NCBI GenBank assembly: GCA_036679605.1
Contig: JAZDCZ010000407.1
Span: 64,001 to 128,000, forward strand
DNA: 64,000 bases
DNA from: Gemmatimonadota bacterium
Lineage (GTDB): Bacteria > Gemmatimonadota > Gemmatimonadetes > Gemmatimonadales > GWC2-71-9
Direction: 5' to 3'
Shown here: piece after piece, positions 15,740-63,478 of the stretch
How the letters are laid out: every line of letters starts with the position of its first letter
How positions within the stretch are numbered: position 1 is the first letter of the stretch
Translations under genes and position numbers: made by a program
Notes under the pieces: model-generated
Seen by the model: the letters and a program-made list of their open reading frames with translations, nothing else
Database searches by the model: none
Told to the model about the DNA's origin: nothing

Positions 15740-15843
15740 CGGTGGACATCACCCGTATCTGATGCTATAGTTATACATGAGGAAATCCATTCATGGATTC
15801 AGTGCGCGTTCCGTAGGCAATGCTGTTCGGGAAGAATATGATC

Positions 15844-18081
15844 ATGAGCAAGACTCTCTACATATTAGTCGGTCTGCCAGGGTCCGGTAAGTCATGGTAC
15901 GCGACGCACGAGTTGAAGGCTGTGAGGCGGGTGAGCCAAGATGATATGGGCAGAGATGTGCATATGAGAGCCTTCACCGCCGCCTTGGCTGCTGACGAGT
16001 CCGTGGTTGTGGATCGCGTGAACTTTGACCGCAGCCAACGGGAGAGGTACATCACCCCTGCCAGGCAGCGCGGCTACCATATCGTATGCGTCTGGTTCGA
16101 TGTGGATCGGGCGACTTGTATGAGGCGGCTGTCTGGGAGGAAGGGACACCCGACCGTGTCTAAGGACGATGACCACGAGCGAATAGTGGGACACTTCGCC
16201 AAGATGATGGTGCAGCCGCTGGGGGACGAGTACGACGAGTTGAGGGTGGTGTCCAAGCGCACGCACGCGAAGGTGGAGGACATACGGGATGAGTGCGAGG
16301 GCAGGCGGACTATCGTCGTGGGCGATATACACGGCTGCTTCGACGAGTTCATGCTCCTCCTGCAAAAATGTGGATATAGCCCAGAGGACATCGTCGTGAG
16401 CGTCGGTGACTTGACTGATCGCGGACCGAAGAGTCGAGAGACATTGGAGTGGTTCTACAGCACGCCCGGGACGCATGTGGCGGAGGGGAACCACTGCAAC
16501 AAACTGAGACGGCTCTGGTCCGGACGCCGGGTCAAGATATCCAATGGATTGGGTTCCACAATCGAGCAGTGCGATGGCATGGATCATAAGGCAATCGCCG
16601 CGTGGATGTCCCTGTGGCCGCAGATCATTCGAGTCCCAGACATCGGTGGTCTGCCTGCGTATGTGGTACACGCCGGCGTGGACGGGACCCGTCCGATCGA
16701 CAGACAGAAGGTGGAGGATTGTTTGTACGCGCGGTGTCTCGGAGGCAAGGACTATTTTGACGAGGACGGCGGGGCGTGGTGGTATCACACACTGGACGGC
16801 TCGTTTGTCGTGTTGAGTGGACACGCTATCCATGACAATCCGCGCCCAGTGGAGTGTGCATATCTATTGGATGGTGGCGCATTCCAAGGCGGGACGCTAC
16901 GGGCTCTGGTGATCAATGGTGAGGGGACGGAGGTGTTCGAGGTGGACAGTTCCGGCTATGTGACGTCGACTGAACCCAAGACTCCGGTGCAAGCGAGGGA
17001 GGAACTCGTTGCGGAGGGTTTGATCCGTAAGGATGAACTCGGGGACTTGGCCGTCTACACATACACAGATGCCTGCGTGCATGCGCGCATGTGGGACAAC
17101 ATCACCATCAACAGCCGAGGTCATGTGTTTAATCGAGTCACAGGGGAATGCGTCGCGTGGTCGTTCCCGAAGTTCTTCAACATGGGCGAGATGCCAGAGA
17201 CGCAGGAATATGTCCTGCCGTGGACTGGGGGTTTCGCGGCGTTCGAGAAGATGGACGGATGGTTGGGTAACCTCTATAGGCTGGATGACGGGCAATATGC
17301 GATATCCACGCGAGGTTCTTTCAAGAGTCCTGGCGCACTCTGGGCGACGCAATTCCTACGGGACAACCATGACCTGTCCGGCCTGCCGGACGATGTCACG
17401 CTCGTGTTTGAGCTGATAAGCCCGATCACGAGGATCATAGTGGACTACGGTGACAAAGAAGCTCTCACACTTCTGGCGGCCTTCAACAGGCACACTGGGG
17501 AGGAGTACGCTTGGCATAGGGTTATGGAATGGGCTAGTATATACAAGTTCATCACGCCGACGGTGTATTGTGGGGATTTCGCGGAATGCCGCGCCACCTT
17601 GGCTCATAGCTCCGGCAAGGACATGGAGGGATTCGTCGTGAGGTTTCACAACGGCTTGCGGGTCAAGGTGAAGGGCGAGGATTATCTGCGCCGTGCGAAA
17701 ATAGTTTCCAATATGACGCCGCTGTCCGTGTGGGGCGCCATGTCGTCGGGCAAAGTGTTGGACGAGTACCGCGACGCGGTGGACGCGGATTACAGGGGAC
17801 AATTGGACGCCATGGCTGATGAATTGGAAGAGCGGTGGGCCGCAGTAAATGAAGAAATAGACAGTGAGTTCGCCTGTAGCTTTCCGGGAATGACTGCCCA
17901 AATATCCGATGAACACGAAGGCAGGAAGGGTTTTGCCGAGAGAGTTGGGAACCTGACGCTGCGCCACAGGCGCGTGATGTTCGCCAGACTCGACGGAAAG
18001 TCGGAACTCATTGACAAGTACATAATGGGGATCATCAGGCCCCATAACAACGAAATGAAGGTGATAAATGGTGATTCGTAG
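15844..18081 (+). CDS. Polynucleotide kinase / metallophosphoesterase / T4 Rnl1-type RNA ligase fusion
   Basis: GLPGSGKS; GDIHG, GDLTDRGP, GNH; KFFN, EKMDG, STRG, EGFV, KVK. Confidence 0.9.
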   Translation: MSKTLYILVGLPGSGKSWYATHELKAVRRVSQDDMGRDVHMRAFTAALAADESVVVDRVNFDRSQRERYITPARQRGYHIVCVWFDVDRATCMRRLSGRKGHPTVSKDDDHERIVGHFAKMMVQPLGDEYDELRVVSKRTHAKVEDIRDECEGRRTIVVGDIHGCFDEFMLLLQKCGYSPEDIVVSVGDLTDRGPKSRETLEWFYSTPGTHVAEGNHCNKLRRLWSGRRVKISNGLGSTIEQCDGMDHKAIAAWMSLWPQIIRVPDIGGLPAYVVHAGVDGTRPIDRQKVEDCLYARCLGGKDYFDEDGGAWWYHTLDGSFVVLSGHAIHDNPRPVECAYLLDGGAFQGGTLRALVINGEGTEVFEVDSSGYVTSTEPKTPVQAREELVAEGLIRKDELGDLAVYTYTDACVHARMWDNITINSRGHVFNRVTGECVAWSFPKFFNMGEMPETQEYVLPWTGGFAAFEKMDGWLGNLYRLDDGQYAISTRGSFKSPGALWATQFLRDNHDLSGLPDDVTLVFELISPITRIIVDYGDKEALTLLAAFNRHTGEEYAWHRVMEWASIYKFITPTVYCGDFAECRATLAHSSGKDMEGFVVRFHNGLRVKVKGEDYLRRAKIVSNMTPLSVWGAMSSGKVLDEYRDAVDADYRGQLDAMADELEERWAAVNEEIDSEFACSFPGMTAQISDEHEGRKGFAERVGNLTLRHRRVMFARLDGKSELIDKYIMGIIRPHNNEMKVINGDS

Positions 18082-19666
18082 ACAGAAAATGACGATGCTC
18101 GTCAACTCGGTCGCTGGGGAGACCCGTGTGGCTATATGCCGAGATGGGCGACTGGAGGAGCTGTGGGTCGAACACTCAGATCAGGTTTCGCCCGTTGGTA
18201 ACATCTACAAGGGAAGGGTGACGAATGTGGAGCGTAGCCTCCAGGCCGCGTTCATCGATTGCGGGTTCGGCAAGGAAGGCTTCCTGCATGTGTCCGATAT
18301 ACTCCCTCGGTATTTCCCGAAGAAGCGCAAGAACGAGCGGATCGGGAACCGCACGCGCAGGAGTGATCGCCCTACGATCGAGAGCTGCCTCCGGAGGGGG
18401 GATGAGGTCATCGTACAGGTCATCAAAGATGGTTTCGGACATAAAGGTCCGGCCTTGAGTACATATATATCGCTTCCCGGCAGGATGTTGGTTATGTTGC
18501 CGTATAGCACTGGATCAGGAGTGTCCCGCCGCGTGGTTGATATCGAGAAGAGGCGTGAACTCAAGAAGATGCTTGCTGGGATGAGACTGTCGAAGGAGGC
18601 AGGTTTCATACTCCGCACGGCAGGCAATACTGGTGGTCTGACCGAATTTCAGGCAGACGCCAAGTATCTCGTTGAATTGTGGGAGAAAGCTGAACGCAGG
18701 ATGAAGCGAAAGGCTCCCACGGAGGTACTGCATGAGCGAGGCTTGGTTACGCAGATTCTGCGGGACAGGTGGACTAAGGACTTCGATCAGGTGATCGTGG
18801 ACAGTAGGGAGGACGCAGCAGCAGCACGGGCATACTTGAAGGCGACAGCTCCGCGGATCAAAAGGAAACTGGTCACGCTCCACACCGGCTCGCCCATATT
18901 CGAGAAATATGGCATCGAGAGCGATGTCGAAGGGTTGGCTGGCAGGAGCGCCCCACTTCCGTCTGGTGGACACATAGTCATCGATCAGACCGAGGCTTTG
19001 GTCGCGGTGGATGTGAACTCAGGCAGGACCAAAAGCAGGAACAGCGAAGACACCGCGCTTAAGACCAATTTAGAGGCTGCCACAGAGGTGGCCAGACAAC
19101 TTAGGCTGCGAGATCTCGGCGGTCTAGTCGTTGTGGATTTCATAGACATGGTGAGCCACCGGAATCGTGTCAAAGTGGAAGAGACACTGTCCAAAGCTTT
19201 GGCACAGCACAGGGAAAAGGCTCAGGTGTTGCCGATGAGTGAGTTTGGTATAATTGAGATAACGCGGCAGCGTAGCAGACAGTCTGTGGCTGCAGCCTTA
19301 CACGCCACCTGCCCTCAGTGTTCAGGCAGCGGGAAGATAGAGTCGCTCGCGTCGTCCGTGGCGTCCATACTACGGCAGATGCGATCTGCGATATCCGCGA
19401 ATCCAAGATGCAGGATACGCGCTATGGCTCCTACGGAGATTGTCACGGAGGTTTTTAATCGGCATCGGGAAGAGATGGATAGACTAGAGTCTCTGGCAGG
19501 TGCGCCAGTGGAACTTTTGGCAGGGGGGAGGACGGATGTTAGCATTGGACAGCCCGCGACGCACGGTGGAAAAACAAGTGAAAAACCAAGTGGACGCGGG
19601 AACAGTAGAAAGAGGAGGCGTCGTAGAAAGAGCCGAGGCAACAAAGTGGCCAAGGCGGTTGGATAA
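18068..19666 (+). CDS. Ribonuclease E/G family
   Basis: GNIYKGRV, AAFID, DVNSG, LRDLGGLVVVDFIDM, CPQCSGSG. Confidence 0.95.
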   Translation: MVIRRQKMTMLVNSVAGETRVAICRDGRLEELWVEHSDQVSPVGNIYKGRVTNVERSLQAAFIDCGFGKEGFLHVSDILPRYFPKKRKNERIGNRTRRSDRPTIESCLRRGDEVIVQVIKDGFGHKGPALSTYISLPGRMLVMLPYSTGSGVSRRVVDIEKRRELKKMLAGMRLSKEAGFILRTAGNTGGLTEFQADAKYLVELWEKAERRMKRKAPTEVLHERGLVTQILRDRWTKDFDQVIVDSREDAAAARAYLKATAPRIKRKLVTLHTGSPIFEKYGIESDVEGLAGRSAPLPSGGHIVIDQTEALVAVDVNSGRTKSRNSEDTALKTNLEAATEVARQLRLRDLGGLVVVDFIDMVSHRNRVKVEETLSKALAQHREKAQVLPMSEFGIIEITRQRSRQSVAAALHATCPQCSGSGKIESLASSVASILRQMRSAISANPRCRIRAMAPTEIVTEVFNRHREEMDRLESLAGAPVELLAGGRTDVSIGQPATHGGKTSEKPSGRGNSRKRRRRRKSRGNKVAKAVG

Positions 19667-44635: not shown

Positions 44636-45415
44636 GTGGATGTGACATTGAACATGGTGGTGTTCGCGGAGGAGCCGGACATTCTGGGTATGTCCCTACG
44701 GCGGATCGTGCGGCACACGCGGCACACGCCGATAAGGTTATGGCTGCAGGGCGGCTGCACACCGCAAGTACACGAATTTTGCCAGCAATTCGCTGCCGCG
44801 CACGGCGACATTGATGTGGTCGTCTCACGAAAGAACATAGGACATGGCCCTGCGCTCGACAGGCTTTGGGAGATGTGCGAGACTCCATATTTTCTCTGTT
44901 TTGACATGGATTCATTTCCGATCGCCGACGGGTGGTTGGAGGATTTGGAGTCCAAAATCGCCAGTGGGGCCAGTTGCACAGGGGTGATTGAGAGAGCGGT
45001 TGGGCGGAGGAACAGGTGGGGGGAGTATGTACACCCATCTTGCCTTCTGATTGGGAAGGATGAGTTTGAGTCTCTGAAGCACCCGCGACATGGCTTACGG
45101 TTTGGTGGACTCTCGCCCACTAGGGCGGATGTCGGCGAGATGATAACTGTGCAGATAATGCGCTCCGGTCGCCAGTATGACGGATGGTGGTACACGCACA
45201 GCAGATTTCCAGATGAGGTGCGATGGGGCTTTCGGCACTACGGCGGTTATTGGTGTCACATATGGATGGTCTCGCAATTGGTTGGGCAGAAGAGATGGCA
45301 CGGTCGTGGTGACGCAGAGAAGAAGGCTGGCATGGCTTGGGTGTATGACCTCTACGGCGTCGCACCTGAGCGGTACGCCGAACTTATGGCGGAGTTCTTG
45401 TCGGAGAATGGGTGA
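44636..45415 (+). CDS. Glycosyltransferase family 2-like protein
   Basis: NIGHGPALD, FDMDSF. Confidence 0.7.
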   Translation: MDVTLNMVVFAEEPDILGMSLRRIVRHTRHTPIRLWLQGGCTPQVHEFCQQFAAAHGDIDVVVSRKNIGHGPALDRLWEMCETPYFLCFDMDSFPIADGWLEDLESKIASGASCTGVIERAVGRRNRWGEYVHPSCLLIGKDEFESLKHPRHGLRFGGLSPTRADVGEMITVQIMRSGRQYDGWWYTHSRFPDEVRWGFRHYGGYWCHIWMVSQLVGQKRWHGRGDAEKKAGMAWVYDLYGVAPERYAELMAEFLSENG

Positions 45416-45837
45416 TGGAACCTACTCTTTACATGATGATCGGTCTGCCGGGTTCCGGCAAGACATGGTATGCGAACAGGCTGAAGGCCGTTAAAGTAAG
45501 TCAGGATGAGATGGGGGGTGACGGCCATCTGAGAGAGTTTTGTAAATGTCTGACGAATGGCGATTCTGTGGTGGTGGATCGCGTGAATTTTGACCGTGAG
45601 CAGAGAGATAGGTACATCAGCCCCGCCCGGGCTAGGGGATATAGTGTCGTGTGTGTCTGGTTTGATGCCGATCAGGCAGCGTGCCTGAATCGGCTGTCAG
45701 ACAGGCGTGGACATCCGACCGTCTCCGAGAGTGACAATCACGAGATGATACTGAAGCGATACGCTGGATTGATGGTGTTCCCATTGGAGGACGAATACGA
45801 CGAGCTGAATGTCGTGTCGTTGGTAGATCAGATTTAG
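45415..45837 (+). CDS. Stand-alone polynucleotide kinase-like P-loop protein
   Basis: GLPGSGKT, VSQD, VVVDRVNFD; paralog of 15844 N-terminus. Confidence 0.8.
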   Translation: MEPTLYMMIGLPGSGKTWYANRLKAVKVSQDEMGGDGHLREFCKCLTNGDSVVVDRVNFDREQRDRYISPARARGYSVVCVWFDADQAACLNRLSDRRGHPTVSESDNHEMILKRYAGLMVFPLEDEYDELNVVSLVDQI

Positions 45838-48963: not shown

Positions 48964-49235
48964 AACGCCTCCTTTCAGGACATTATACCTGTCTCCGCGA
49001 GGCTGTCCTCTAACTGTCCTCCTGGTTATAGGTAGGACACACTCGTAGGTTCCTGCTTCAACGAGGCATGGTTTCACTGTTCAAGCCTTAACCCAAACCA
49101 AGACCAAACACACTCAAGTAGGACAGTCAGGGCTGCCCTTTGTGGAATCTTACGCGTCCCATCCCCTTCGGCCAACCAATCCGGGTGGATTTCCGTCGGC
49201 GAGGGGCCTATAAGTATATATGGAGGCTTTCCAAA

Positions 49236-50108
49236 ATGTTCGGCAAACATGAGATCGGCAAATTCAGGGCTTGGATGGATTATTTGAAGGGCGGCGGTCT
49301 TGACCGCCCTGCGGCGTCCATCCCGTTTGACCTGATATCCACAGATGGTGCCACCGATGACACGATACTTTTCCTAGCGAGCATGCTCACCATGGCCGCC
49401 TTTTCTGGGCCACCCGCTGCCGAGGAAGCGATGGAAGGGTTTATGCGCGATCCGGAGAACTTCGCGTCGGAGATAGATGGCGAGATCAAGGAGAAGATGG
49501 CCTCGGCGCAGGACGCGATGGACAGCATGCGATCCACCGAGGAGACACTCTTATCCGTCACGACCCTCCTGCACCTATTCGGCTTGTGGCAGGAGGGCCA
49601 AACGAAATTGCTGCATCCGGCCTATACGCTCAGAAAATTGATCCTGGATCCCGACGAGGGCGAATGGCTTGCCAGTAGTAGATGGATGAATGCAGACGAA
49701 GATAACAATCCTACAATGCTTACCCTTTCCGCCACAGAAGAGTTGGTTACATCGGAGCTGATGAAGTTCGGCGTCGGCCTACTGCTCCCATTGTCTGACA
49801 ACCTGCCGTTCGATCTTGTGCTACATTGGGAGGGGCGGATGTTTCGGGCGAAGCTCAGACAGGCAAAGAGGAAGGACACATCGACGCGTTTTTCACTTCC
49901 GACTGACTCAGATTGCGATATCATAGTGTTGTGTGACGGCGAATCGGTCTATCTCTTGAAGCCGAAGGAGTTCAAAGGCCGCCATGGGTTTACTATCCGT
50001 CATCGCCCGACGAAGAATGGTCGCTCGAAGGGTTGCAATTTCCACGAGGATTTCGTGGTGTCTGCGAAAAGAGTCAAGAGCGTCCTTACCTCCGGTCACC
50101 GCCGCTAG
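49236..50108 (+). CDS. GGLDRP-domain protein fused to PD-(D/E)XK-like nuclease fold
   Basis: EELVTSELMKFG..PLSDNLPFDLV..FRAKLR; GGAGG RBS. Confidence 0.65.
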   Translation: MFGKHEIGKFRAWMDYLKGGGLDRPAASIPFDLISTDGATDDTILFLASMLTMAAFSGPPAAEEAMEGFMRDPENFASEIDGEIKEKMASAQDAMDSMRSTEETLLSVTTLLHLFGLWQEGQTKLLHPAYTLRKLILDPDEGEWLASSRWMNADEDNNPTMLTLSATEELVTSELMKFGVGLLLPLSDNLPFDLVLHWEGRMFRAKLRQAKRKDTSTRFSLPTDSDCDIIVLCDGESVYLLKPKEFKGRHGFTIRHRPTKNGRSKGCNFHEDFVVSAKRVKSVLTSGHRR

Positions 50109-50209
50109 AATATAGCACGGGGTCGTTTTCCACTCTGAGGATAGCCACTGGGCAGCCGACCCTTTCCTTGCGCTGGGTTTGATGTTGTCTTTCCGCCGCG
50201 CGGTTCAAT

Positions 50210-51103
50210 ATGAGCAAATACCATCTCGCCGCCGTAGCTCTCACCAGACCCGCCGAGGAGGATTTGACCGCCGTCAGGGACGCCGTGGCGAAGGCCAAGA
50301 AATGGACATCGGACTCATTGCGCCGTCTGGACATCCATGACACCGTCACTGTAAAGGTGAAACGGTTCGCTAAGTCGCCGAACTGGCTGGCCATGTACAG
50401 GTCGAATTCGCAGTTCGGCCGCAACCCTATATTCTGGATCAACGAGAACATCCTCGGCGTCCTGCGCGACGAGGATGTGTTGGACTCTGAGCTGCTCAAG
50501 GTGGTGTACGACAGTCTGCTGCACGAGTATGGCCATGTCGTATGGGAATGGGCCAGGACACGGGATTCTGAGACTTACGACATGCTGTTGAACGGCTTCT
50601 GGGATGACGAGGAGGAGTTCGCCGAGGGGTTCGTGCAGTTCGCGCTAAACGGCCTCGGAGAGAAGGGATATAGGCCAGTCGTCGAGGCGTTCGCCGAGAA
50701 GGTGTTCACCCCCGCCGCGTCCGCTGAGGGCGGCCTACTTCGGCTGGAGTGTCTCTGTGCGGACGACTTCGGTGCTAGGTACAAGGACGGCGACTTGACT
50801 GATGATGACGCAGCGCACATCGAGAACTATGAGGAGACGCGGGCGGCGCAGCTCGCGATGGCCGAGGAGGCCCGGTCGCGAGGGATTGAATGTTATGTGT
50901 CGGACAGCGACGACAAGGACTCCCACCATTCCGATGCGTATATTTATTTCCCGTCCGGCCGCATGGCCGAGGTGGCGGAGATACTCGCCTCCGTCGGCCT
51001 CGATGGCGATGTGCTTGATGTGCCGGAGTGGTTCACCGACGAGAAACAGATATACGGCTGGATCGTGGAGAAGCATGAGAAGCCGGATTGGCACGGCGCT
51101 TGA
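50210..51103 (+). CDS. Hypothetical protein with HExxH motif
   Basis: LLHEYGH..EEEFAEGF. Confidence 0.6.
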   Translation: MSKYHLAAVALTRPAEEDLTAVRDAVAKAKKWTSDSLRRLDIHDTVTVKVKRFAKSPNWLAMYRSNSQFGRNPIFWINENILGVLRDEDVLDSELLKVVYDSLLHEYGHVVWEWARTRDSETYDMLLNGFWDDEEEFAEGFVQFALNGLGEKGYRPVVEAFAEKVFTPAASAEGGLLRLECLCADDFGARYKDGDLTDDDAAHIENYEETRAAQLAMAEEARSRGIECYVSDSDDKDSHHSDAYIYFPSGRMAEVAEILASVGLDGDVLDVPEWFTDEKQIYGWIVEKHEKPDWHGA

Positions 51104-51128
51104 CTTTCGGTTCCGCGTATGCTATATT
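51100..51128 (+). promoter_or_regulatory. Sigma70-type promoter of tRNA operon
   Basis: TTGACT-17 nt-TATATT with extended TG. Confidence 0.75.
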
Positions 51129-51146
51129 AGAGTTGGAGAAAGTATT

Positions 51147-51212
51147 ATGTTGATGATCGCAGCAACCCGTGAACAAGAGCAGGCCGCCGAAGCGAGGGGG
51201 GTCTCCGGGTAA
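51147..51212 (+). CDS. Leader peptide MLMIAATREQEQAAEARGVSG
   Basis: GGAG RBS; run GAA CAA GAG CAG GCC GCC GAA GCG matches downstream tRNAs. Confidence 0.75.
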   Translation: MLMIAATREQEQAAEARGVSG

Positions 51213-51270
51213 GCTGCACTTACATGGCGAAGTGAACCAGCCCTGGAGACGCGAGTCTCGGGGCTTTTTT
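51201..51270 (+). promoter_or_regulatory. Attenuator: antiterminator 51201-51209 and terminator 51239-51270
   Basis: GTCTCCGGG pairs with CCTGGAGAC, the 5' arm of AGCCCTGGAGAC-GCGA-GTCTCGGGGCT-TTTTT. Confidence 0.75.
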
Positions 51271-51275
51271 ATTGC

Positions 51276-51347
51276 GCCCCCATCGTCTAGTGGCTAGGAC
51301 GCCAGTCCCTCAAGCTGGAAACACGGGTTCAAGTCCCGTTGGGAGCA
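51276..51347 (+). tRNA. tRNA-Glu(CTC), C33
   Basis: Cloverleaf; anticodon arm CCAGT-CCCTCAA-GCTGG; no encoded CCA. Confidence 0.85.
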
Positions 51348-51352
51348 TTTTC

Positions 51353-51425
51353 GGGGCCATATCTCAGTCGGGAGAGCGCTTCCTCGGCAAGGAAGAGGTC
51401 AAGGGTTCGAATCCCTTTGGTTCCA
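51353..51425 (+). tRNA. tRNA-Ala(GGC), C33
   Basis: G3:U70; CTTCC-TCGGCAA-GGAAG. Confidence 0.85.
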
Positions 51426-51429
51426 TTGT

Positions 51430-51595
51430 TGGGCCGTAGCAGAACGCCCAGTTAGGAGGTCAAGACAGAGCGACATCACGCGCGGACAGAGAGCGTAACA
51501 GAGGCACTGTGGCAAGCCGCCGGAGTGGTGGTGGGACACCTTCGGTGTGCTGCGCGCGGGACTCAGTGATTCGGGTTCAAGTCCCAGTGGTTCAG
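51430..51595 (+). ncRNA. tRNA-like RNA with ~100-nt insertion
   Basis: Acceptor TGGGCCG/TGGTTCA, T loop GGTTCAAGTCC, internal cUUCGg hairpin. Confidence 0.5.
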
Positions 51596-51599
51596 TAGA

Positions 51600-51673
51600 G
51601 GGGTCGTAGCTCAACACGGGAGAGTGCCTGCCTCGCAAGCAGGAGGTTGGCGGTTCGAGTCCGCCCGATTCCA
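51600..51673 (+). tRNA. tRNA-Ala(CGC)
   Basis: G3:U70; CCTGC-CTCGCAA-GCAGG. Confidence 0.9.
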
Positions 51674-51674
51674 T

Positions 51675-51746
51675 TGCCTTGTGGTGTAACTGGTAACACA
51701 GATGGCTTTGAACCATCCGTTTCGGGTTCGAGTCCCGGTGAGGCAG
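51675..51746 (+). tRNA. tRNA-Gln(TTG)
   Basis: U1:A72; GATGG-CTTTGAA-CCATC. Confidence 0.9.
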
Positions 51747-51748
51747 CA

Positions 51749-51819
51749 GCCCTTGTCGTCTAGCGGTAGGACAGCGCGCCTTCAACGCGCAAACGCCGGT
51801 TCGATTCCGGTCAAGGGCA
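51749..51819 (+). tRNA. tRNA-Glu(TTC), C33
   Basis: GCGCG-CCTTCAA-CGCGC. Confidence 0.85.
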
Positions 51820-51821
51820 TT

Positions 51822-51919
51822 CAGCCGAGCCACTGGTTATCGTCGGGTCATGGGTTGAAATCCTCGAACAGATAGCCATGCGACTGGTGCCATCCGGATT
51901 CGGCGCACAAAAAAGGCTG
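51822..51919 (+). ncRNA. Y RNA-like (YrlA-type) RNA
   Basis: GCCGA..GGTTATC..GCACAAA; T-like GGGTTGAAATCC precedes a D-like GG loop. Confidence 0.55.
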
Positions 51920-51935
51920 GCGCTAGCCAGCCTTT
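51912..51935. terminator. Terminator between convergent units
   Basis: AAAGGCTGGC-GCTA-GCCAGCCTTT. Confidence 0.75.
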
Positions 51936-51956
51936 CCTGTTTTTGCGATTCGGTGG

Positions 51957-52370
51957 TTAGGACAGGATTCCATACCGTTTGCCGCCGAGCTGCGACTTGA
52001 TGCTTTTCGCATTTCGCTTTGAAATGATGTTGACTGCGAAGTGCCGACGTCCGTGACTTTTGCTGACGACCATCACATCGCCAGCCTTGGCGTTGGCGAG
52101 CGACACAAAGCCGCCAGTGAAGTGCGTTTCGTCGTCTCGTTGGAAGCCGCGAGAGTGTGCGATGACGGCCGCATCAACAGAGCCGACAAGGGTGCCGTTG
52201 CGCGACACATCAACCTTGACATTGGTCGCGGACGAGGGCAAAAGCGCGTAATTGGACACAACTGGTTGCGGTAGGATACCTTGGACGCTGAGCGGGATCA
52301 GTGGTCCGCCCTGATGCGAACCATTTGAGCCCACATCGGTTTGAGTGAGGATTTTTGCGAATTTCTTCAT
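51957..52370 (-). CDS. Stand-alone EcoRII N-terminal (B3-like) DNA-binding domain protein
   Basis: KILTQTDVGSNGSHQGGPLIP..ETHFTG..AGDVMVV. Confidence 0.65.
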   Translation of the reverse strand: MKKFAKILTQTDVGSNGSHQGGPLIPLSVQGILPQPVVSNYALLPSSATNVKVDVSRNGTLVGSVDAAVIAHSRGFQRDDETHFTGGFVSLANAKAGDVMVVSKSHGRRHFAVNIISKRNAKSIKSQLGGKRYGILS

Positions 52371-52465
52371 TTCATTCTCCTTTTTTCTATCTGCCTGTCT
52401 GCCTGTCTGTTGGGCACATGCCTTTGCACATATAGTTATATGCGCTCCGCAGGCGGAAGTCAACC

Positions 52466-53965
52466 TTAGAACTCAAAGAAAGCAAAGGCCGAGTGGAGGC
52501 CGAGCGCGGCCAGCGACGCCCAGAATATAGTGAGTCCCACATCACGGCTGACACCCGTGTGTGATGGCTTAGCCCGCGAGCCGATGGCGTATCCCAAGGC
52601 CGCGATCAACAGCCCGCTACCCGCCGTCTTGAGCAGTACCCATCCAATCCCTTTCGGGAGGGTGTCTGTCCAGAGGGTGGCGAAATAGTTCCGCCGGAAG
52701 GCGGACACAGTGGCACCGTCGGACGACAAAAGGAAGGCCACAAGGGACGCGTAACAGTTGGCCGCGAAGGCGATTAATGTCAGGATTGGTGCGGCGATTG
52801 CCATGGATAGCGATATGTTGCCGTACAGGTAATGTCTAGGGTTAGCCCCAAGGTTGTGCATGGCGTCGAATTGGTGTGTCAATCGCCTAGTCCCGATATC
52901 TGCCGCTATGGACGCGCCACATTTGCCTGCGATCAATACACATATCAGCAAGGGAGCCACCACGCGGAACGCACTATACCCCGTCGCCGCGAGGAACTCC
53001 TCCATGACCAGCGGCAATGTCATGTCCCTGTACGGCAGTTGCGAGAACCCGAAGAAGATTGTGACGAAGCCAGTGAGAGTTCCTGCGATGACGGCGTAGA
53101 GCGCGGTGTTCCCAAAGAGGACCATGCGCAGGTAGTGCAGGAGGTAGTGTACTTTCCATTGTGGTCGTGACCAGCCACGGAACGGTGCATTGGCGGCATC
53201 CAACAGCGTCAGTGCGACTTCGCCAGGAGCCTCCACTATGGCTCGCATTTGTCCGCTAACTGCCACCACCCGTTGCTGTACCTCTTGCTCTTCCTCAGTT
53301 TGAGATCGGAAAAAGTCGTCCAGTTCCTGCGGAGTCACATCACGCAGCCGTTTTTCGGACGGATCCAGCAGTACTAATCTCGGCTGGTGGGGGATGAAGG
53401 CAGCGTAATCATGGCTCACCACGATGGTTGTTCGCCCTGAGTTTCGGTGTGTCCGTGATATCAAGTCTGCTACGGCTTTTGCCCGTTGTGGGTCGAGTCC
53501 AGTGGTTGGCTCATCGAACAGTAGGATATCTGGCTCCATGGCGAGTGTCCGAGCCAACGCGACTCGTTGTCGTTCGCCACCACTGAGGGTACCTGTCTTA
53601 GCATGAAGCGGCACGGACATCTCGGCGAGCCGGCGTCTTGCTTCCCCTCCCTCCGCCTGTCTCTTCCGGTGGTCGATGGCGAATTGGACATTGTCGAGCG
53701 GGGAGAGTTCGTCGAACAGCGCGAGTTTCTGAAAAACCACGCCGATCGTCGCATCATTTTTAGTGTGTATGTCGCCAGACACCTCCATATGGCTTGTCTG
53801 ACGAGCCATGAGATTAAGCAGAGTGGACTTGCCGGATCCGCTCGGTCCAGCTAACACAATGAATTCTCCATCCTCCACGATCAGGTTTGCGCTCCGCAGC
53901 AGCGTTCGCCCTTCAGGTAGCGTGACAGACAGTGTATCGATGCTCAGTGCGGGTTGAAGCTTCAT
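52466..53965 (-). CDS. ABC ATPase fused to MlaE-like permease
   Basis: GPSGSGKS, LSGGERQR, DEPTTGLD; GASIAADIG..DAM..LG. Confidence 0.85.
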   Translation of the reverse strand: MKLQPALSIDTLSVTLPEGRTLLRSANLIVEDGEFIVLAGPSGSGKSTLLNLMARQTSHMEVSGDIHTKNDATIGVVFQKLALFDELSPLDNVQFAIDHRKRQAEGGEARRRLAEMSVPLHAKTGTLSGGERQRVALARTLAMEPDILLFDEPTTGLDPQRAKAVADLISRTHRNSGRTTIVVSHDYAAFIPHQPRLVLLDPSEKRLRDVTPQELDDFFRSQTEEEQEVQQRVVAVSGQMRAIVEAPGEVALTLLDAANAPFRGWSRPQWKVHYLLHYLRMVLFGNTALYAVIAGTLTGFVTIFFGFSQLPYRDMTLPLVMEEFLAATGYSAFRVVAPLLICVLIAGKCGASIAADIGTRRLTHQFDAMHNLGANPRHYLYGNISLSMAIAAPILTLIAFAANCYASLVAFLLSSDGATVSAFRRNYFATLWTDTLPKGIGWVLLKTAGSGLLIAALGYAIGSRAKPSHTGVSRDVGLTIFWASLAALGLHSAFAFFEF

Positions 53966-55104
53966 TTGCCTGCCTTTTTCGCACGGAGAGTTACCCATGC
54001 CACATTGCGCCTCAATGCGGTGGATCGTACTAGATGCACAATCTCCGGTCGAGTGACTCCGTTTTGGTCGAACATGACCGTCGATAGTATACTTTTCAGC
54101 GTCGGACCGAGCAATTCTATGGTGTGGTACATCTCCTGCCGTACATGCGGATCATCGATGAGCCTCTCCCGCAGGAAGTCGGCGGTGTGCGAGTTCTTGG
54201 CCATCGTTTCACGGTAGATGTCCGAAAGGAGTAGTTGAATCTGCTTATCGTCGCGCAGCCGCTGGAGAATTCCGCCCAGACGAGTTCTGAGTTCCTCGTC
54301 CTGCCGTGCCATGTCCCAAGTCTCATGCAACGCCTCGCGCAGTTCGTGTCGGTCGTCCTCCGGCATGTCAGATATCCAATCGCCGAGCCAGTCCAACATT
54401 AGTTCGTATGCGGCGCTGTAATTTCCCCGTACTATATTCCAAACAATCTGTGTTTTAGGAGCGTCGGCCAAAGCGTTGCTAGCAAGACGGCTCAAAGTGG
54501 GTGTCAGGTGTTCCTGGAGTATTGGACGCAGTCGCTGCTGTATCAGCGGCCAATCCTCGCCTAAGCGATCCAGATGTTTTTGGCTTATGGTTTGCATATC
54601 CCCGCTGTGGTTTCGTATTACCGCTCCAAACTCTTCACTGACCAGACCGATGTATGCCATAGCCAAGCCGCCCGCGATTGGTTTCCAAATTTCCGTGAGT
54701 TCGGTGCCATTATCGCGCCATGCCAGCGAGATGTGGTCGGCCACGCGCTTTCGTATGGCGGGTGGCAGCAAGGCGGACACGGTTTCCTCCGCCGACATCG
54801 GCGTCTGCCAGCAGGTCGCCAATGTGTTGGATAGGTCGCCCAACCTCTGATCGACGGACAAAGCGATTGTGTCCCAGTGGACGGCACCTACTTCCCCGAT
54901 GCGTCGCAGGCCATTCTCTGTGTCTAGGAACACAACATCCCCTGGAGAGATATTGTGTTCCCTCGGGGCAGGTATATGGAGTTCGCTTGTCGGTCTCAGC
55001 ATGCGTCGGCATACAATATATGCCGATCCGACTGCCCCCGACCCCGCTGAAAGCCACAGGACAGCTCCGAGGATTAGATGGATATTGCGGCTACCGCTGT
55101 GCAT
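53962..55104 (-). CDS. Membrane-anchored MlaD-like partner
   Basis: N-terminal TM, PGDVVF..RIGEV, long helical region; ATGA coupling. Confidence 0.55.
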   Translation of the reverse strand: MHSGSRNIHLILGAVLWLSAGSGAVGSAYIVCRRMLRPTSELHIPAPREHNISPGDVVFLDTENGLRRIGEVGAVHWDTIALSVDQRLGDLSNTLATCWQTPMSAEETVSALLPPAIRKRVADHISLAWRDNGTELTEIWKPIAGGLAMAYIGLVSEEFGAVIRNHSGDMQTISQKHLDRLGEDWPLIQQRLRPILQEHLTPTLSRLASNALADAPKTQIVWNIVRGNYSAAYELMLDWLGDWISDMPEDDRHELREALHETWDMARQDEELRTRLGGILQRLRDDKQIQLLLSDIYRETMAKNSHTADFLRERLIDDPHVRQEMYHTIELLGPTLKSILSTVMFDQNGVTRPEIVHLVRSTALRRNVAWVTLRAKKAGK

Positions 55105-57401: not shown

Positions 57402-57950
57402 TTGGATATAGTGAGAGATCAGGCGAAGATATTGTATCTTGGCGAACACCTGCGTCTGATGTTGGCGGACGGCAAATGGGAGTTCGTCGAAAGGATCAGG
57501 GCATCAGATGTGGTGGTGGTGGTGGTGGCGGCTACATCGGACGGCCACATGCTTCTCATCGAGCAGATCAGAGCGTCACTCGGTGCTCCAGTCATAGAAT
57601 TGCCAGCCGGACTTGTCGGTGACTCTGAAAAGTACGAGAATCTCGCCGCTGCGGCTATCCGTGAGCTTGAGGAGGAGACTGGCTACACTGCGTCGTCCGT
57701 CGTGAAATTGACAGAGGGCCCCCCTTCCGCCGGATTGTCGTCAGAGGTGGTCACTTTCCTCCGGGCGACCGGACTCTCTAAGTCCGATAGGCCGGGTGCT
57801 GGGGAGGGCGACGGGGATGAGGATATAACCCTTCACAAGGTGCCGTTAGGACGCGTGAGCCGTTGGCTTGCCAGCAAGTCGGGGGAGGGCATACTTATAG
57901 ACCCAAAAGTGTATGTCGGGCTACATTTTCTTGGTGTCCCATTGCTTTGA
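57402..57950 (+). CDS. NUDIX hydrolase (ADP-ribose pyrophosphatase-like)
   Basis: ELPAGLV..AAIRELEEETG. Confidence 0.9.
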   Translation: MDIVRDQAKILYLGEHLRLMLADGKWEFVERIRASDVVVVVVAATSDGHMLLIEQIRASLGAPVIELPAGLVGDSEKYENLAAAAIRELEEETGYTASSVVKLTEGPPSAGLSSEVVTFLRATGLSKSDRPGAGEGDGDEDITLHKVPLGRVSRWLASKSGEGILIDPKVYVGLHFLGVPLL

Positions 57951-58532: not shown

Positions 58533-58581
58533 TTTTTGACGATAATCCGGCTCATTTATAGCTGGGTACGATGGTTTGGTT

Positions 58582-58637
58582 CGGGCCGACGCGGACGGGT
58601 TATCTGGTAATGACTCCCGTCCGCACAAACTTGCCCG
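58582..58637 (+). ncRNA. Short Y RNA-like RNA
   Basis: CGGGCCGA-C-GCGGACGGG-TTATCT..CCCGTCCGC-ACAAACTTGCCCG, resembling the Ro-binding stem. Confidence 0.7.
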
Positions 58638-58693
58638 CCCCAGTCTTGCGATGCTTTGTCTCGGCGATTACTTGCCGAACAGAGGCTTCTGTG

Positions 58694-58724
58694 GCCGGAG
58701 CGGTTTGCCGCCTCGGCTTTTTTT
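58694..58724 (+). terminator. Terminator upstream of rsr
   Basis: GCCGGAGCGG-TTTG-CCGCCTCGGC plus T run. Confidence 0.65.
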
Positions 58725-58749
58725 GTGCGGACAGAGAAGGAGAATGGAG

Positions 58750-60345
58750 ATGGATTACTCAAAGCATGTGGCGGACAAGACCCCGCAGTCTGAGCCGATC
58801 ATTGGTCGCGAGGCGGACATGGCCAAAAATAGCGCCGGCGGGTTCTCGTTCGAGCTAGACAAATGGACGCAGCTCGAGAGGTTTCTCGTGTTGGGTACTG
58901 AGGGTGGAACATTCTACACAGGCGAGCGGAAGCTGACCCGGGAAAACATGTCCGTGATCTTGATCTGCGCGAAGGAGGATGGCCCGCGCGCCGTCGCTAC
59001 CATTGTCAGGTTCCGCAGGGAGAACCGTGCGCCGAAGGTGAACACACTGCTCTTCGCGCTGGCGGTCTGCGCCAAGATGGCTGGCAAAGAGTCCGCCACG
59101 GCGGCCAACGCGGCCGTCACAGAGGTTTGCAGCACGGCGACGCACTTGTTTGGGTTCCTAAAGTATGTCAAAGCCCTCGGAGGCACTGGTTCTGGCACCC
59201 GCCGGGCAGTTGCCCGCTGGTACAACTCTCGTGAGCCAGTAAACTTGGCGTACCAGGTCGCGAAATACCGCAGCAGGGAAGGTTGGACGCACAGGGATGT
59301 CCTGCGCGTGGCGCATGTTGTCCCAGAGACCGACGCCCACAACGATGTCCTCGCGTTCGCGGCTGGCAAGGCCGGGGCTGATCCGGAGAAGGCACATATG
59401 GAGATTCTTCGAGCGGCGGAGATCGCGGCTGGCGCGACCACGCCGGACGAGGTGATCTCTCTCATCCACGACTTCAGGTTGCCGTGGGAGTGCATCCCGT
59501 CGGACCTAATGAAGTCGCCGGAGGTCAATGAAGCATTGCTTCAGAACATGCCGATGACGGCCACGGTGCGACAGCTCGGCAGGATGACGGCCCTAGGGCT
59601 GCTCGGGCCGATGTCGGACACCGCGAATCTCGTCATCGAGAGGCTTTTGAACGCCGACGCGGTGAGGAAGTCGCGGATGCACCCGATCCAGGTGCTGGCG
59701 GCTTTGTCCACCTACTCCAATGGTGAGGGGGCTAGGGGATCCCTTAGCTGGAACCCGAACCAGTCGATTGTGGACGCCCTCGACGGGGCGTTCTATGCGT
59801 CCTTCGGGAATGTGGAGCCGACGGGCAAGAGGACATACCTTGCCCTCGACGCGTCCGGCTCGATGGGCTGGGGCGACATCGCGGGCATCCCTGGGCTGAC
59901 CCCAGCCAAGGCGACGGCGGCGATGTGTATGGTCACCGCTCGCACCGAGGCCAAGGGCAGCTTCCATGTGGCGGCCTTCTCGGACGAGATGATCCCGGTG
60001 GCGATCACGCCGAACCAGCGGCTGGACACCGCGATGAGGATTATCGCCGATGTCAACTGGGGCGGCACAGACTGTGCCCAGCCGATGCTCGACGCCCTTG
60101 AGAACGGGATCGAGGCGGACACATTCGTGATTTACACCGACGGGGAGACTTGGGCGGGTGCTGTCCACCCGTGCGAGGCACTCAGAAGATACCGCAGGGA
60201 GACGGGTATCCCAGCCAAGCTGGTCGTGGTTGGTATGACCTCGACGGGATTCACGATTGCGGATCCAAAGGACGCTGGAACACTGGATGTTGTCGGATTC
60301 GATTCGGCTGCCCCACAGGTCATATCGGACTTCGCTAGGGCGTAA
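58750..60345 (+). CDS. rsr: Ro60/Rsr TROVE-vWA RNA-binding protein
   Basis: NSAGGFSF, RFLVLGTEGGTFY, KYRSREGWTHRD, DASGSM, GGTDC, YTDGET. Confidence 0.95.
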   Translation: MDYSKHVADKTPQSEPIIGREADMAKNSAGGFSFELDKWTQLERFLVLGTEGGTFYTGERKLTRENMSVILICAKEDGPRAVATIVRFRRENRAPKVNTLLFALAVCAKMAGKESATAANAAVTEVCSTATHLFGFLKYVKALGGTGSGTRRAVARWYNSREPVNLAYQVAKYRSREGWTHRDVLRVAHVVPETDAHNDVLAFAAGKAGADPEKAHMEILRAAEIAAGATTPDEVISLIHDFRLPWECIPSDLMKSPEVNEALLQNMPMTATVRQLGRMTALGLLGPMSDTANLVIERLLNADAVRKSRMHPIQVLAALSTYSNGEGARGSLSWNPNQSIVDALDGAFYASFGNVEPTGKRTYLALDASGSMGWGDIAGIPGLTPAKATAAMCMVTARTEAKGSFHVAAFSDEMIPVAITPNQRLDTAMRIIADVNWGGTDCAQPMLDALENGIEADTFVIYTDGETWAGAVHPCEALRRYRRETGIPAKLVVVGMTSTGFTIADPKDAGTLDVVGFDSAAPQVISDFARA

Positions 60346-61212: not shown

Positions 61213-61857
61213 GTGCGAATGATACCGGATGTGTTGAAAACATTGGACAGTGGCTTCATTGATTTGATGAATCTGCGCGGAGCATCCATCGGCTGTCGTG
61301 TGGCTGTGGTGGTTGGGAGCAACGCCTGCGGCAAATCCCTACTGCGCCGAGCGATCGTTCAGAAGTTGCATTACGACGAAGGCTTGTTTGTGGCCCATTT
61401 CTCGCAGGAGGCGAGATCCAAAGGTGGGTTACAGAGAGTTTTTGTGTACGGATCTGAGGATGACGAATCGACGGGTTATCTCACCATTAGTTCCCTTCTC
61501 AAGAACTTTCAGCAGGATCGGGACAAGCCATGGGTCACAGTGTGTGACGAGCCGGAGATCGGACTTAGCGAGGAGTCGCAAATTGGACTCGGAGGCTGGC
61601 TCCGCGACAGAATGTCGAATGGAATGCCAAATCTGCTTGGTATGGTGGTCGTCACTCACAGCCGCCATGTCGTGTCGGCTCTCTCGCAGTGTGACGGGTT
61701 TCGGCTGCTAGACTTGGACGGAAAGTGCAATACGGCGGAGGAATGGCTGAACCGCGACATTGTCTCTGTATCGCCGCAGCAGCTTAAGGATAAAGGCATG
61801 GCTCGGTGGCATGAGTTCTCCGGTTACTTCAAGAGGCGGGAGGACAAGAATGGGTAG
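61213..61857 (+). CDS. ABC-type ATPase
   Basis: GSNACGKS, DEPEIGL, VTH. Confidence 0.75.
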   Translation: MRMIPDVLKTLDSGFIDLMNLRGASIGCRVAVVVGSNACGKSLLRRAIVQKLHYDEGLFVAHFSQEARSKGGLQRVFVYGSEDDESTGYLTISSLLKNFQQDRDKPWVTVCDEPEIGLSEESQIGLGGWLRDRMSNGMPNLLGMVVVTHSRHVVSALSQCDGFRLLDLDGKCNTAEEWLNRDIVSVSPQQLKDKGMARWHEFSGYFKRREDKNG

Positions 61858-63478
61858 GGATGCGGAATCGATGGCAGCCACGCAGCGATCCATTTCCGTG
61901 TCTGAGTTCTTTGCCAAGAATCGACATCTGCTCGGTTTTGATAACAAACGCAAGGCCCTGCTCACCACCGTCAAAGAAGCTGTGGACAACAGCCTTGATG
62001 CCTGTGAGGAGGCCGGAATACTTCCTGAGATACATGTGTCCCTCGCACAGGTCGGTGACGACCGTTGGCGCGTGTCTGTACGGGATAATGGCCCAGGCAT
62101 ACCAAGGGAACAGTTACCGCAGGTGTTCGGTAAGCTGCTATACGGTTCCAAATTCCACCGACTCAAGATGTCCCGTGGGCAGCAAGGTATCGGCATTTCG
62201 GCTGCTGGGATGTACGGCCTAATAACCACAGGAAAGCCTGTCCGGGTCGTCAGCCGCACGGACATCTCCGATCCAGGTTGCGAAATGATGCTGGCGATCA
62301 ACACGAACCGAAACTTACCAGAGGTTATCTCCGACGCCCCAGCGTCCGTTCCATGGGGGAGGGGTACGTATATTGAGATTGAGATGTCGGCGTCATACGC
62401 TCGTGGAAGGCTTTCGGTGGATGAATATATCGAGTTGACGGCGATGGCTAATCCGCACGCCGAGATATATTATAGACCGCCGTCGGGCCTAGTCATATTT
62501 CGCCGCGCAATGGAAACCATGCCCGCCGAGACGAGGGAAATCAAGCCGCACCCGCATGGTGTTGAGTTGGGTACCATGCTGAGGATGCTGAAGGACACAA
62601 AGGCGCGGACGGTTTCGATGTTCCTGCGCGGGGAGTTCTGTCGCGTGAGCGAATCCATCGCCACCAAAGTGTGTAGAGAGGCAAAAGTTGGTGCTGCCCG
62701 CGCGGTACGATCCGTTAAATCGTCCGACGCGGAGAGACTGCATTGCGCGCTCCAGACCGCCAAGATCATGTCCCCACCGACTGATTGCCTCTCGCCTATC
62801 GGTGCAGAGGCTCTTTTGGCTGGATTACTGAAAGGCGTGAGAGCTGAGTTTTACACCGCAGTCTCGCGCCCCCCTGCCGTCTATAGAGGGAATCCATTCC
62901 AGATAGAGGTTGCACTTGCGTGGGGCGGGGATATTGGCAATGTGGAGGGAAACAAATCCAAACTCATCAGGTTCGCGAATAGGGTGCCGTTGCTCCACCA
63001 GCCTGGATCGTGTTGTATGCACAAGTCCGCTGCGGAGGTGCGATGGGGAGGGTATGGGCTCTCTCAGTCGAAGGGCTTGCTACCGTCCGCGCCATTGGTG
63101 ATGTTAGTACACATGGCGTCCGTGTGGGTGCCGTATATGAGCGAGGGCAAGGAAGCGATCGCTGACTATGATGAGATACATAAGGAGATCAAACTCGCCC
63201 TTGCCGAGGTTGGTCGCCGATTGGCTAGACTCGTCAAACGGAAGAAAAGGCGGAAGCATCATCAGAACCGGAGGGATGTGTTTGACAGGTACATTGGTGA
63301 GGTGGCTGACGCCGTCTGTTCTCTTCGGCCCAGCACAGATAACGCCAAGTTGCGGTCAAACCTGCAGGCCATCGCGAAGACGCACACCGCCCGCGCCGAC
63401 GAGCAGTATGATGACCATGGCAAAGTGGTCCGGGCGTACGATCTTCCGGACACGATTATCATTGAGGAACCCAGCTAG
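61850..63478 (+). CDS. top6B: DNA topoisomerase VI subunit B
   Basis: SVSEFFAKNRHLLGFD, EAVDNSLDA, DNGPG, SRGQQGIG, RFANRVPLL. Confidence 0.95.
   Translation: MGRDAESMAATQRSISVSEFFAKNRHLLGFDNKRKALLTTVKEAVDNSLDACEEAGILPEIHVSLAQVGDDRWRVSVRDNGPGIPREQLPQVFGKLLYGSKFHRLKMSRGQQGIGISAAGMYGLITTGKPVRVVSRTDISDPGCEMMLAINTNRNLPEVISDAPASVPWGRGTYIEIEMSASYARGRLSVDEYIELTAMANPHAEIYYRPPSGLVIFRRAMETMPAETREIKPHPHGVELGTMLRMLKDTKARTVSMFLRGEFCRVSESIATKVCREAKVGAARAVRSVKSSDAERLHCALQTAKIMSPPTDCLSPIGAEALLAGLLKGVRAEFYTAVSRPPAVYRGNPFQIEVALAWGGDIGNVEGNKSKLIRFANRVPLLHQPGSCCMHKSAAEVRWGGYGLSQSKGLLPSAPLVMLVHMASVWVPYMSEGKEAIADYDEIHKEIKLALAEVGRRLARLVKRKKRRKHHQNRRDVFDRYIGEVADAVCSLRPSTDNAKLRSNLQAIAKTHTARADEQYDDHGKVVRAYDLPDTIIIEEPS

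Follow-up and report, generated by a model that had tools for sequence, protein, structure and literature searches.

Why phages carry tRNA genes has been debated for decades, and how the synthesis of these tRNAs is controlled has hardly been asked. The second question is raised by an array of five tRNA genes in a 64,000-nucleotide stretch of DNA (hereafter the window) that was deposited as part of a Gemmatimonadota bacterium. The window corresponds to positions 64001-128000 of contig C343, which has 155,416 bp and a GC content of 0.556 and belongs to a 6.7-Mb assembly with 434 contigs; judging by its gene set, the contig is likely that of a phage (see below). The array is preceded by a short open reading frame (ORF) and an intrinsic terminator, and an earlier reading made from the sequence alone (the sequence-only reading) proposed that translation of this ORF decides whether the array is transcribed. 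The analysis reported here indicates that the element, which we call unit B, is probably a ribosome-mediated (leader-peptide) transcription attenuator that gates the tRNA operon and thereby makes tRNA synthesis respond to demand.

The leader unit in front of the array

The elements of unit B, in window coordinates, are as follows.

51100-51128, + strand: sigma-70-type promoter, with the -35 hexamer at 51100-51105, the -10 hexamer at 51123-51128, a spacer of 17 and TG before the -10
51135-51139, + strand: Shine-Dalgarno site GGAGA, 7 nt 5' of the ATG at 51147
51147-51212, + strand: leader ORF, 21 sense codons followed by TAA at 51210-51212
51171-51194, + strand: control run GAA CAA GAG CAG GCC GCC GAA GCG (Glu, Gln and Ala only)
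51201-51209, + strand: putative 5' strand of the antiterminator, made of the last three sense codons and resembling the terminator 3' arm
51213-51241, + strand: hairpin P1, beginning right after the stop codon
51240-51270, + strand: intrinsic terminator, with stem 51240-51264 and T-run 51265-51270

The sequence-only reading had named a promoter, a ribosome-binding site, a 21-codon ORF, a terminator and a 5-nt gap to the array, and inspection of the sequence together with the scans found every one of them. The promoter has 10 of 12 consensus matches in a scan of positions 49000-54000. Such a match does not in itself stand out, since 5 kb yielded 2 sites where 2.3 were expected by chance, and the call is credible because the promoter is conserved in the relatives described below. 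The terminator has 10 pairs and one bulged G, with a stability of -15.7 kcal/mol, and 5 nt separate its end from the first tRNA at 51276. This gap has no room for another promoter, and so expression of the array must go through the terminator.

The control run has the codon content that had been listed earlier, and lies one base earlier than had been implied. Pairing of the leader end with the terminator 5' arm, also proposed at that stage, is borne out: positions 51201-51209 can form 9 bp with 51242-51250, one of these a G.U pair. P1 stacks beneath this helix, which leaves the stop codon as a 3-nt bulge.

Three modules, each matched to its own array

The genes that unit B precedes are listed here with the two other arrays of the contig that have a unit of the same kind; tRNAs were called with ARAGORN and Infernal.

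51276-51347, + strand: tRNA-Glu (CUC), 57.3 bits, with C33 in the anticodon loop
51353-51425, + strand: tRNA-Ala (GGC), 56.1 bits
51426-51599, + strand: non-tRNA spacer of 174 nt, starting with a decayed 5' part of tRNA-Gln (CUG)
51600-51673, + strand: tRNA-Ala (CGC), 63 bits
51675-51747, + strand: tRNA-Gln (UUG), 56.3 bits
51749-51819, + strand: tRNA-Glu (UUC), with C33, 62.3 bits, labelled SeC(tca) by ARAGORN
51912-51945, + strand: operon-closing terminator, a 10-bp stem and then a T-rich tail
C343 61513-60648, - strand: array A, Tyr/Thr/Gly/Gly/Asn/Asn/Met/Thr
C343 131701-132387: array C, Leu/Trp/Leu/Tyr/Pro/Pro

The 450 nt upstream of every tRNA array on C343 were read and compared. Units A, B and C share the promoter type and have in common a ribosome-binding site, an ORF of 20-28 codons, a hairpin and a GC-rich terminator; in all three the leader ends with TAA followed by the same three bases. 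A profile of the segment from stop codon through P1 to terminator, searched with nhmmer against the 6.7-Mb assembly, gave three matches (E 4e-21 to 3e-14), all of them directly before C343 tRNA arrays; the next matches have E values of 0.036 and 7.7. The leader peptides themselves are mutually unrelated, except that each follows its own array.

This last relation can be stated at the level of individual codons. The claim that each anticodon of array B has its cognate codon in the eight-codon run stands, with exact codons for 5 of 5 anticodons; CAG, also in the run, has no exact cognate in the array and is read through wobble by tRNA-Gln (UUG). Counted over distinct anticodons, leader A holds the exact codon for 6 of 7 and leader C for 4 of 6, and among A, B and C the sets of the other arrays score 0-3. 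Among the 310,828 six-frame codon positions of C343 there is a single run of at least 8 codons from the decoding set of array B, and it is that of leader B. Of 857 short ATG ORFs on the contig, 6 have all five exact array-B codons, as do 462 of 200,000 random 21-codon windows; coverage equal to that of leaders A and C is reached by 16 and 73 of these ORFs, respectively.

The match is concentrated and in frame. The best 12-codon window contains 8 own-array codons in each of the three leaders, a level reached by fractions of 5.1e-4 (A), 1.8e-4 (B) and 1.35e-4 (C) of 310,762 six-frame windows in C343, and the counts of own-array codons in frames 0/+1/+2 are 12/6/6 for A, 8/2/1 for B and 8/2/1 for C. 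The comparison was also made blind to the choice of ORF, by scanning the 330 nt upstream of each array for ATG ORFs of 9-50 codons and keeping the best 12-codon window that any of them offers. In the resulting C343 matrix, A, B and C each score 8 with their own upstream region, and no off-diagonal value exceeds 5. The own sum is reached in 2 of 120 permutations, the second of which only swaps two uninformative rows.

A predicted folding switch that depends on ribosome position

Leaders were folded from the predicted transcript start to the terminator, with a ribosome masking the RNA to 12 nt past the A site. For full-length unit B at equilibrium, the terminator has a probability of at most 0.25 for stalls up to the first GCC codon, and of about 0.9 for later stalls and at the stop codon. 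Equilibrium folding shows the switch for B and not for A or C, whose terminators have stabilities of -22.1 and -24.7 kcal/mol, and for this reason transcripts cut before the terminator 3' arm were folded as a kinetic test.

In these truncated transcripts the last sense codons of A, B and C pair with the terminator 5' arm in a helix stacked on P1, and the stop codon forms a bulge or a small internal loop within the stack. The stalls that allow the antiterminator to form cover codons 10-23 in unit A; in units B and C they begin at the start and extend to the last control codon and to the last Leu/Pro codons, respectively. In all three units the antiterminator is lost once the ribosome occupies the stop codon or any of the last 5-6 codons (in unit B, with the A site at or beyond 51195), which places the control codons just upstream of the boundary. 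Loss of the antiterminator with a ribosome at the stop is what the sequence-only reading had predicted. It had also anticipated that a stall on the final GAA or GCG would mask the antiterminator in part, and 5'-arm pairing in unit B indeed declines from 0.80 to 0.68 at GAA and 0.40 at GCG. In unit A, the control-codon region pairs with the leader end, an arrangement of the 1:2 type that blocks the antiterminator in untranslated RNA.

Relatives in marine metagenomes

Contigs from four marine metagenome runs carry relatives of the leader, with 19-23 differences over 157-309 aligned bases, and a metagenome pattern scan yielded two such contigs, L040 and L041. Their similarity to the window starts at the -35 hexamer, and the flanks upstream of it cannot be aligned. 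Both keep the promoter hexamers, the Shine-Dalgarno site, the reading frame, the control run, the last three codons, P1 and the terminator. The Shine-Dalgarno site is stronger (GGAGG, through A>G at 51139), the control run differs only by GAA>GAG at 51173, and the L041 leader has a 3-nt insertion that preserves the frame. Two further changes affect the pairings: T51244>C replaces a G.U with a G-C pair, in the terminator as well as in the antiterminator, and an extra C after 51258 provides a partner for the formerly bulged G. With these changes the terminator reaches -22.1 kcal/mol and the antiterminator has 9 Watson-Crick pairs, and masked folds leave the switch boundary where it was.

The pairings were also examined in an alignment of five sequences (A, B, C, L040 and L041), with slid alignments as controls. 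Paired cells make up 90.8% for the antiterminator plus outer P1, against at most 50.8% in the slid controls, and 100% for the terminator, against at most 59.3%. The outer 4 bp of P1 are kept in 5 of 5 sequences, with a double change from G-C to U-A in unit A. There is one double (compensatory) change each in antiterminator plus P1 and in the terminator, and five sequences make this weak evidence of covariation.

The arrays behind the related leaders follow the same codons. They contain 8 and 7 tRNAs, in a different order from that of the window and exclusively for Glu, Ala and Gln. The additional tRNAs are Gln-CUG and Ala-UGC, the exact readers of the leader codons CAG and GCA, and an intact Gln-CUG lies in L041 and L040 where the window has the decayed copy that begins at 51426.

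Further searches for relatives were negative within their scope. A shared-motif scan of the IMG/VR database gave 32 matches, all of them chance, and neither the protein encoded at 50210-51103 nor the DnaK adjoining unit A has relatives there. A 22-mer of the tRNA-Glu anticodon arm had 0 matches, and a 21-nt query for the control run had 1, in an unrelated coding region without a tRNA. Two terminator-based patterns returned 0 matches and 4 ordinary bacterial terminators in genome contigs, and 0 in IMG/VR.

Similar arrangements in unrelated huge phages

The DnaK adjoining unit A led to two published huge phages, LR756502.1 and LR745206.1, whose GC content is about 0.35 and whose sequences bear no similarity to the module in the window. 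Infernal finds 50 tRNA matches in the first and 61 in the second. Upstream of many tRNA blocks in both lie a promoter-like stretch of high AT content, a short ORF in which the amino acids of the block abound, and a strong terminator; in 7 units from the two phages the terminator ends 2-16 nt 5' of the first tRNA. A leader with seven consecutive Gln codons precedes a block of four Gln tRNAs. Before a block of 15 tRNAs for Asn, Arg, Leu, Val, Ile and Thr, 26 of 37 leader codons are read by the block, and the leaders of Pro/Asp, Ile/Gly, Glu/Tyr and His/Phe blocks are matched likewise.

Own sums in the ORF-blind matrix are 41 for LR756502.1 and 59 for LR745206.1, against 23.9 and 25.8 expected elsewhere, and they are reached in 15 and 0 of 20,000 permutations, respectively. 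Masked folds of ten units showed that eight pair the terminator 5' arm with the leader end until the ribosome passes the block-specific codons, and that this pairing is gone within two or three codons beyond them. The Lys block in L049 has no T-run.

The tRNAs of these two phages (loci L049-L059) are grouped in blocks that each serve one amino acid or a few, and isoacceptors are often duplicated. The N-termini of many matched leaders resemble one another, which suggests a duplicated module.

Proposed mechanism

The mechanism that we propose for unit B builds on computational evidence: the anatomy of the unit, the agreement between its codons and the anticodons of the array, alternative pairings that change with the place of the ribosome, conservation, and recurrence in unrelated huge phages. 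Transcription would start from the promoter at 51100-51128, and the 21-codon leader, which is presumably translated, would be read while RNA polymerase proceeds. If the control run is decoded quickly, the ribosome would reach the last codons or the stop codon and cover 51201-51209 together with the start of P1; the terminator would then fold, and transcription would end 5 nt before the first tRNA-Glu. If charged tRNAs for these codons are scarce, the ribosome would lag, 51201-51209 would pair with the terminator 5' arm in the helix stacked on P1, the terminator would not form, and polymerase would enter the five tRNA genes. Both the direction and the size of such a response are inferred. Because the product of the operon is the molecule that is sensed, the loop would act as a supply-on-demand homeostat for one codon set, and C343 would possess three of these homeostats, one each for arrays A, B and C. 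The natural trigger may be cleavage or depletion of host tRNAs, or heavy codon demand late in infection.

The proposal of attenuation made in the sequence-only reading has gained support from the three paralogous modules matched to three arrays, from the two relatives that keep leader, terminator and antiterminator with strengthening changes, and from the similar arrangement in two unrelated phages. That reading had also staked itself on homologous leaders following the anticodons of their arrays and retaining the antiterminator, and both expectations turned out in its favor.

Several observations weigh against the proposed attenuator. The codon match is incomplete: leader A lacks a Tyr codon, leader C lacks two exact codons, and ACC, CTC, CCC and, in this genome, GCA are codons for the right amino acids that the array does not read exactly. 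The statistics were chosen after the pattern had been seen. Relatives that are about 90% identical mean that conservation of the leader in itself proves little. Full-length RNA of A and C favors the terminator wherever the ribosome sits (probability at least 0.94), which means that the switch in these units must operate kinetically, like that of trp. In unit B, the final two or three control codons fall partly within the masked zone. Units B and C lack a 1:2 protector, and their ribosome-free RNA forms the antiterminator; to go by the folds, these two leaders should give read-through if left untranslated. A fourth array on the contig has a weak leader-like ORF only, without a terminator, and a single tRNA-Met has no matched leader. 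In the two AT-rich phages, the upstream region of a block is its unique best match for 3 of 18 and 4 of 19 blocks under a crude block definition, in part because the 110-nt rule splits operons into blocks without a leader of their own. Two of the ten folded units there lack the switch, one of them through a wrong automatic choice of T-run (the first T-run in L058). Finally, neither a capsid nor a terminase gene was identified on C343, and its status as a phage depends on matches to a head protease and a tail fiber and on a gene set like that of huge phages.

Some of these observations also bear on what else the unit could be. The same switch might report the general status of translation, such as amino-acid starvation, ribosome shortage or host shut-off, so that all arrays would open together and the codon match would be a secondary tuning. 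An amino-acid shortage would stall the ribosome just as a tRNA shortage does, and the antiterminator that B and C form in ribosome-free RNA means that any untimely translation of the leader would give read-through. A general sensor does not need three modules in one genome with three codon sets that each fit their own array, and the match is repeated block by block in the two AT-rich huge phages; we therefore regard this explanation as unlikely.

Less likely again is that the terminator acts as a fixed leaky valve, or as a hairpin for RNA processing or stability, that holds tRNA transcription at a low, constant level beside an ORF that senses nothing. Such a role would suit the terminators of A and C, which always fold at equilibrium, and the terminator that stands directly before the single tRNA-Met without a matched leader. 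It leaves unexplained the codon match and its in-frame bias, the in-frame insertion in L041, the mimicry of the terminator 3' arm by the last sense codons in A, B, C and both relatives, and the boundary just past the matched codons in unrelated phages. That promoter, ORF and terminator are a separate small gene for a micropeptide or small RNA, with position and codons coincidental, is very improbable: the unit is on paper a complete transcription unit, but in 6.7 Mb the module occurs 3 times, always before a tRNA array, the peptides are unrelated save for following these arrays, the chance estimates are low, and there is no space for a promoter belonging to the tRNAs themselves.

Relation to known attenuators and to phage tRNAs

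The attenuators of enterobacterial amino-acid operons and of pheST work by the same logic as the one proposed for unit B. With the former (trp, his, leu, thr, pheA and ilvGMEDA) the units share a promoter, a short leader with a cluster of control codons, an intrinsic terminator, and an antiterminator that has one strand in common with the terminator and that the ribosome, depending on its position, either covers or leaves free. Like the leader of ilvGMEDA, these leaders are multivalent, several amino acids being sensed together, and unit A also has a protector of the 1:2 type. The differences are that the targets here are tRNA genes rather than biosynthetic enzymes, so that the output is the sensed molecule; that the match is at the level of individual codons and anticodons; that the antiterminator extends a hairpin beginning right after the stop codon; that unit B has no 1:2 hairpin; and that several differently tuned modules occur in one genome. 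There is no sequence similarity. Four of the five features that characterize leader-peptide attenuators at the sequence level are present in unit B, namely a promoter with ribosome-binding site and short ORF, matched control codons, a terminator before the genes, and (computationally) a ribosome-dependent antiterminator; the fifth, a 1:2 protector or pause hairpin, is absent. The pheST operon of E. coli resembles the present case in that leader-peptide attenuation controls a component of the translation apparatus and not amino-acid synthesis. In pheST, which is not of phage origin, the target is a synthetase and one codon type is sensed, whereas here a tRNA array follows a multi-codon leader.

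T-box elements are likewise leader RNAs acting in cis, which choose between terminator and antiterminator and use a codon-like element to read the state of a specific tRNA. They bind uncharged tRNA directly, without translation, by means of a conserved motif and a specifier loop, whereas the reader proposed here is the ribosome. Rfam scans of the unit B region (51-52 kb, E up to 1), of the other units and the relatives (E up to 0.01) and of the whole window (E up to 0.001) found no match to a T-box model or to the amino-acid leader families His, Leu, Thr and Trp; they returned tRNAs and sub-threshold noise only. A YrlA match was discarded, as it scores 23.6 bits, far under the cut-off, and spans two tRNAs.

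Phage tRNAs have been described as countering host defenses that target tRNAs (PMC10264068, PMC11555353), which supplies a rationale for replacement tRNAs and for altered anticodon loops. The subject of these two papers is the role of phage tRNAs and not the control of their synthesis, and a term search of their texts found no mention of attenuation or leaders. A term search of the text of a paper on huge phages (PMC7162821) likewise found no mention of attenuation, leader or terminator. The sequence-only reading had known of no earlier account of such a sensor, and our searches agree: no description of a codon-matched attenuator before phage tRNAs was found in the full-text literature, in which subscription journals are thinly covered.

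The tRNA arrays and their surroundings

The last tRNA of array B was taken in the sequence-only reading as Glu (UUC), against the SeC(tca) label given by ARAGORN. The Infernal alignment decides for Glu-UUC, which replaces that label: it has a 5-bp anticodon stem, a 7-nt loop reading UUC with C33, and a Glu-type body. Position 33, almost universally U, is C in both Glu tRNAs of the array, and position 38 is A; the C33 loop in the last one is the reason for the ARAGORN mislabel. The C33 Glu loops are kept in L041, and both Glu tRNAs of L040 have ordinary U33 loops. This C33 may be relevant to escape from anticodon-loop nucleases.

Within the spacer at 51426-51599, neither ARAGORN nor Infernal calls a tRNA. 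Beyond the decayed tRNA-Gln the spacer consists of an insert with a UUCG-capped hairpin and a tail resembling a tRNA 3' end. A spacer of about 175 nt occupies the same place in the L040 array (about 840-1019), with a UUCG-capped hairpin and patchy similarity to the insert of the window. A hairpin-forming insert of about 30 nt lies between promoter and Shine-Dalgarno site in L041 and in unit C (locus L037, about 6400-6440), and is absent from unit B and L040. In unit C, about 130 nt separate the terminator from the first tRNA (C343 about 131575-131700), and these contain a tRNA-like acceptor/T-arm minihelix and a GA-rich stretch.

ARAGORN makes 25 tRNA calls on C343, which comprise four arrays, the single tRNA-Met and one Ser call; the last has a 1,118-nt intron and is regarded as spurious. 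The fourth array (Lys/Lys/Arg/Arg) has a leader-like ORF of 29 codons (C343 149609-149698, - strand) that contains all four exact codons, as do 14 of the 857 short C343 ORFs, and no clear Shine-Dalgarno site precedes it. As a candidate attenuator this array was rejected as unproven, with a best window of 2/12, three hairpins and no terminator. Infernal adds to it a weak fifth tRNA, absent from the ARAGORN calls, at C343 149172-149241 (38.6 bits), which is probably Arg-CCG. An ordinary 71-residue ORF has its terminator a few nucleotides before the start of the single tRNA-Met (C343 about 49950-50089), and the juxtaposition of terminator and tRNA is thus not confined to matched leaders. On another contig of the assembly, C173, an array of six tRNAs (Ala, Gly, Met, Val, Arg and Pro; about 160480-160674) has upstream of it a 14-codon ORF mostly of those amino acids; neither the module nor a clear promoter or terminator was found there.

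The likely phage origin of C343 is suggested by a gene set typical of huge phages. The contig encodes a match to a head-maturation protease and one to a collagen-like tail fiber, a polynucleotide kinase-phosphatase-RNA ligase fusion, an RNase E/G homologue, Ro60 (TROVE plus vWA), DnaK, FtsH, an initiation-factor-like protein and several methyltransferases. Searches of isolated phages with blastn and tblastn gave only tRNA-level or distant protein matches, the best identities being at most 56% for DnaK (59% over one partial match), at most 52% for FtsH and about 23% for the kinase-phosphatase-ligase. Genes for RNA repair and quality control in the window are located at 15820-18081 (the kinase-phosphatase-RNA ligase fusion, of tRNA-repair type), 18068-19666 (the RNase E/G homologue), 45412-45837 (a stand-alone P-loop kinase), 57402-57950 (a NUDIX hydrolase) and 58576-60345 (the Ro60 homologue). 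Rfam identified no Y RNA in the window to accompany Ro60. An ORF of 3415 residues (C343 28516-38763) has a C-terminal NUDIX domain as its sole family match, and window positions 61760-63478 encode topoisomerase VI B-subunit domains (transducer plus GHKL ATPase), which is unusual on a phage-like contig.

Implications

If unit B works as proposed, it follows the classic logic of attenuation with the loop closed on the tRNA itself, and the supply of tRNA would be set by demand, block by block. This would bring a textbook mechanism to a new class of targets, RNA genes whose product is what is sensed. A wider proposal, which we put forward tentatively, is that huge phages control their decoding capacity in a modular way, each tRNA block having its own codon-matched attenuator that replaces exactly the tRNAs lost by the host through anticodon nucleases, shut-off or heavy demand. 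On this view the phage would gauge the remaining decoding ability of the infected cell separately for each codon family. Attenuation would then be an inducible counter-defense, widespread in lineages unrelated in sequence and including genomes of 630-640 kb.

Such control bears on both codon compensation and escape from tRNA-cleaving defenses, and makes both testable, since each leader would state which codons the phage "worries" about. The leaders would also offer compact, programmable reporters of decoding capacity for chosen codons. The layout is legible from sequence, and a survey over thousands of phage genomes is therefore possible.

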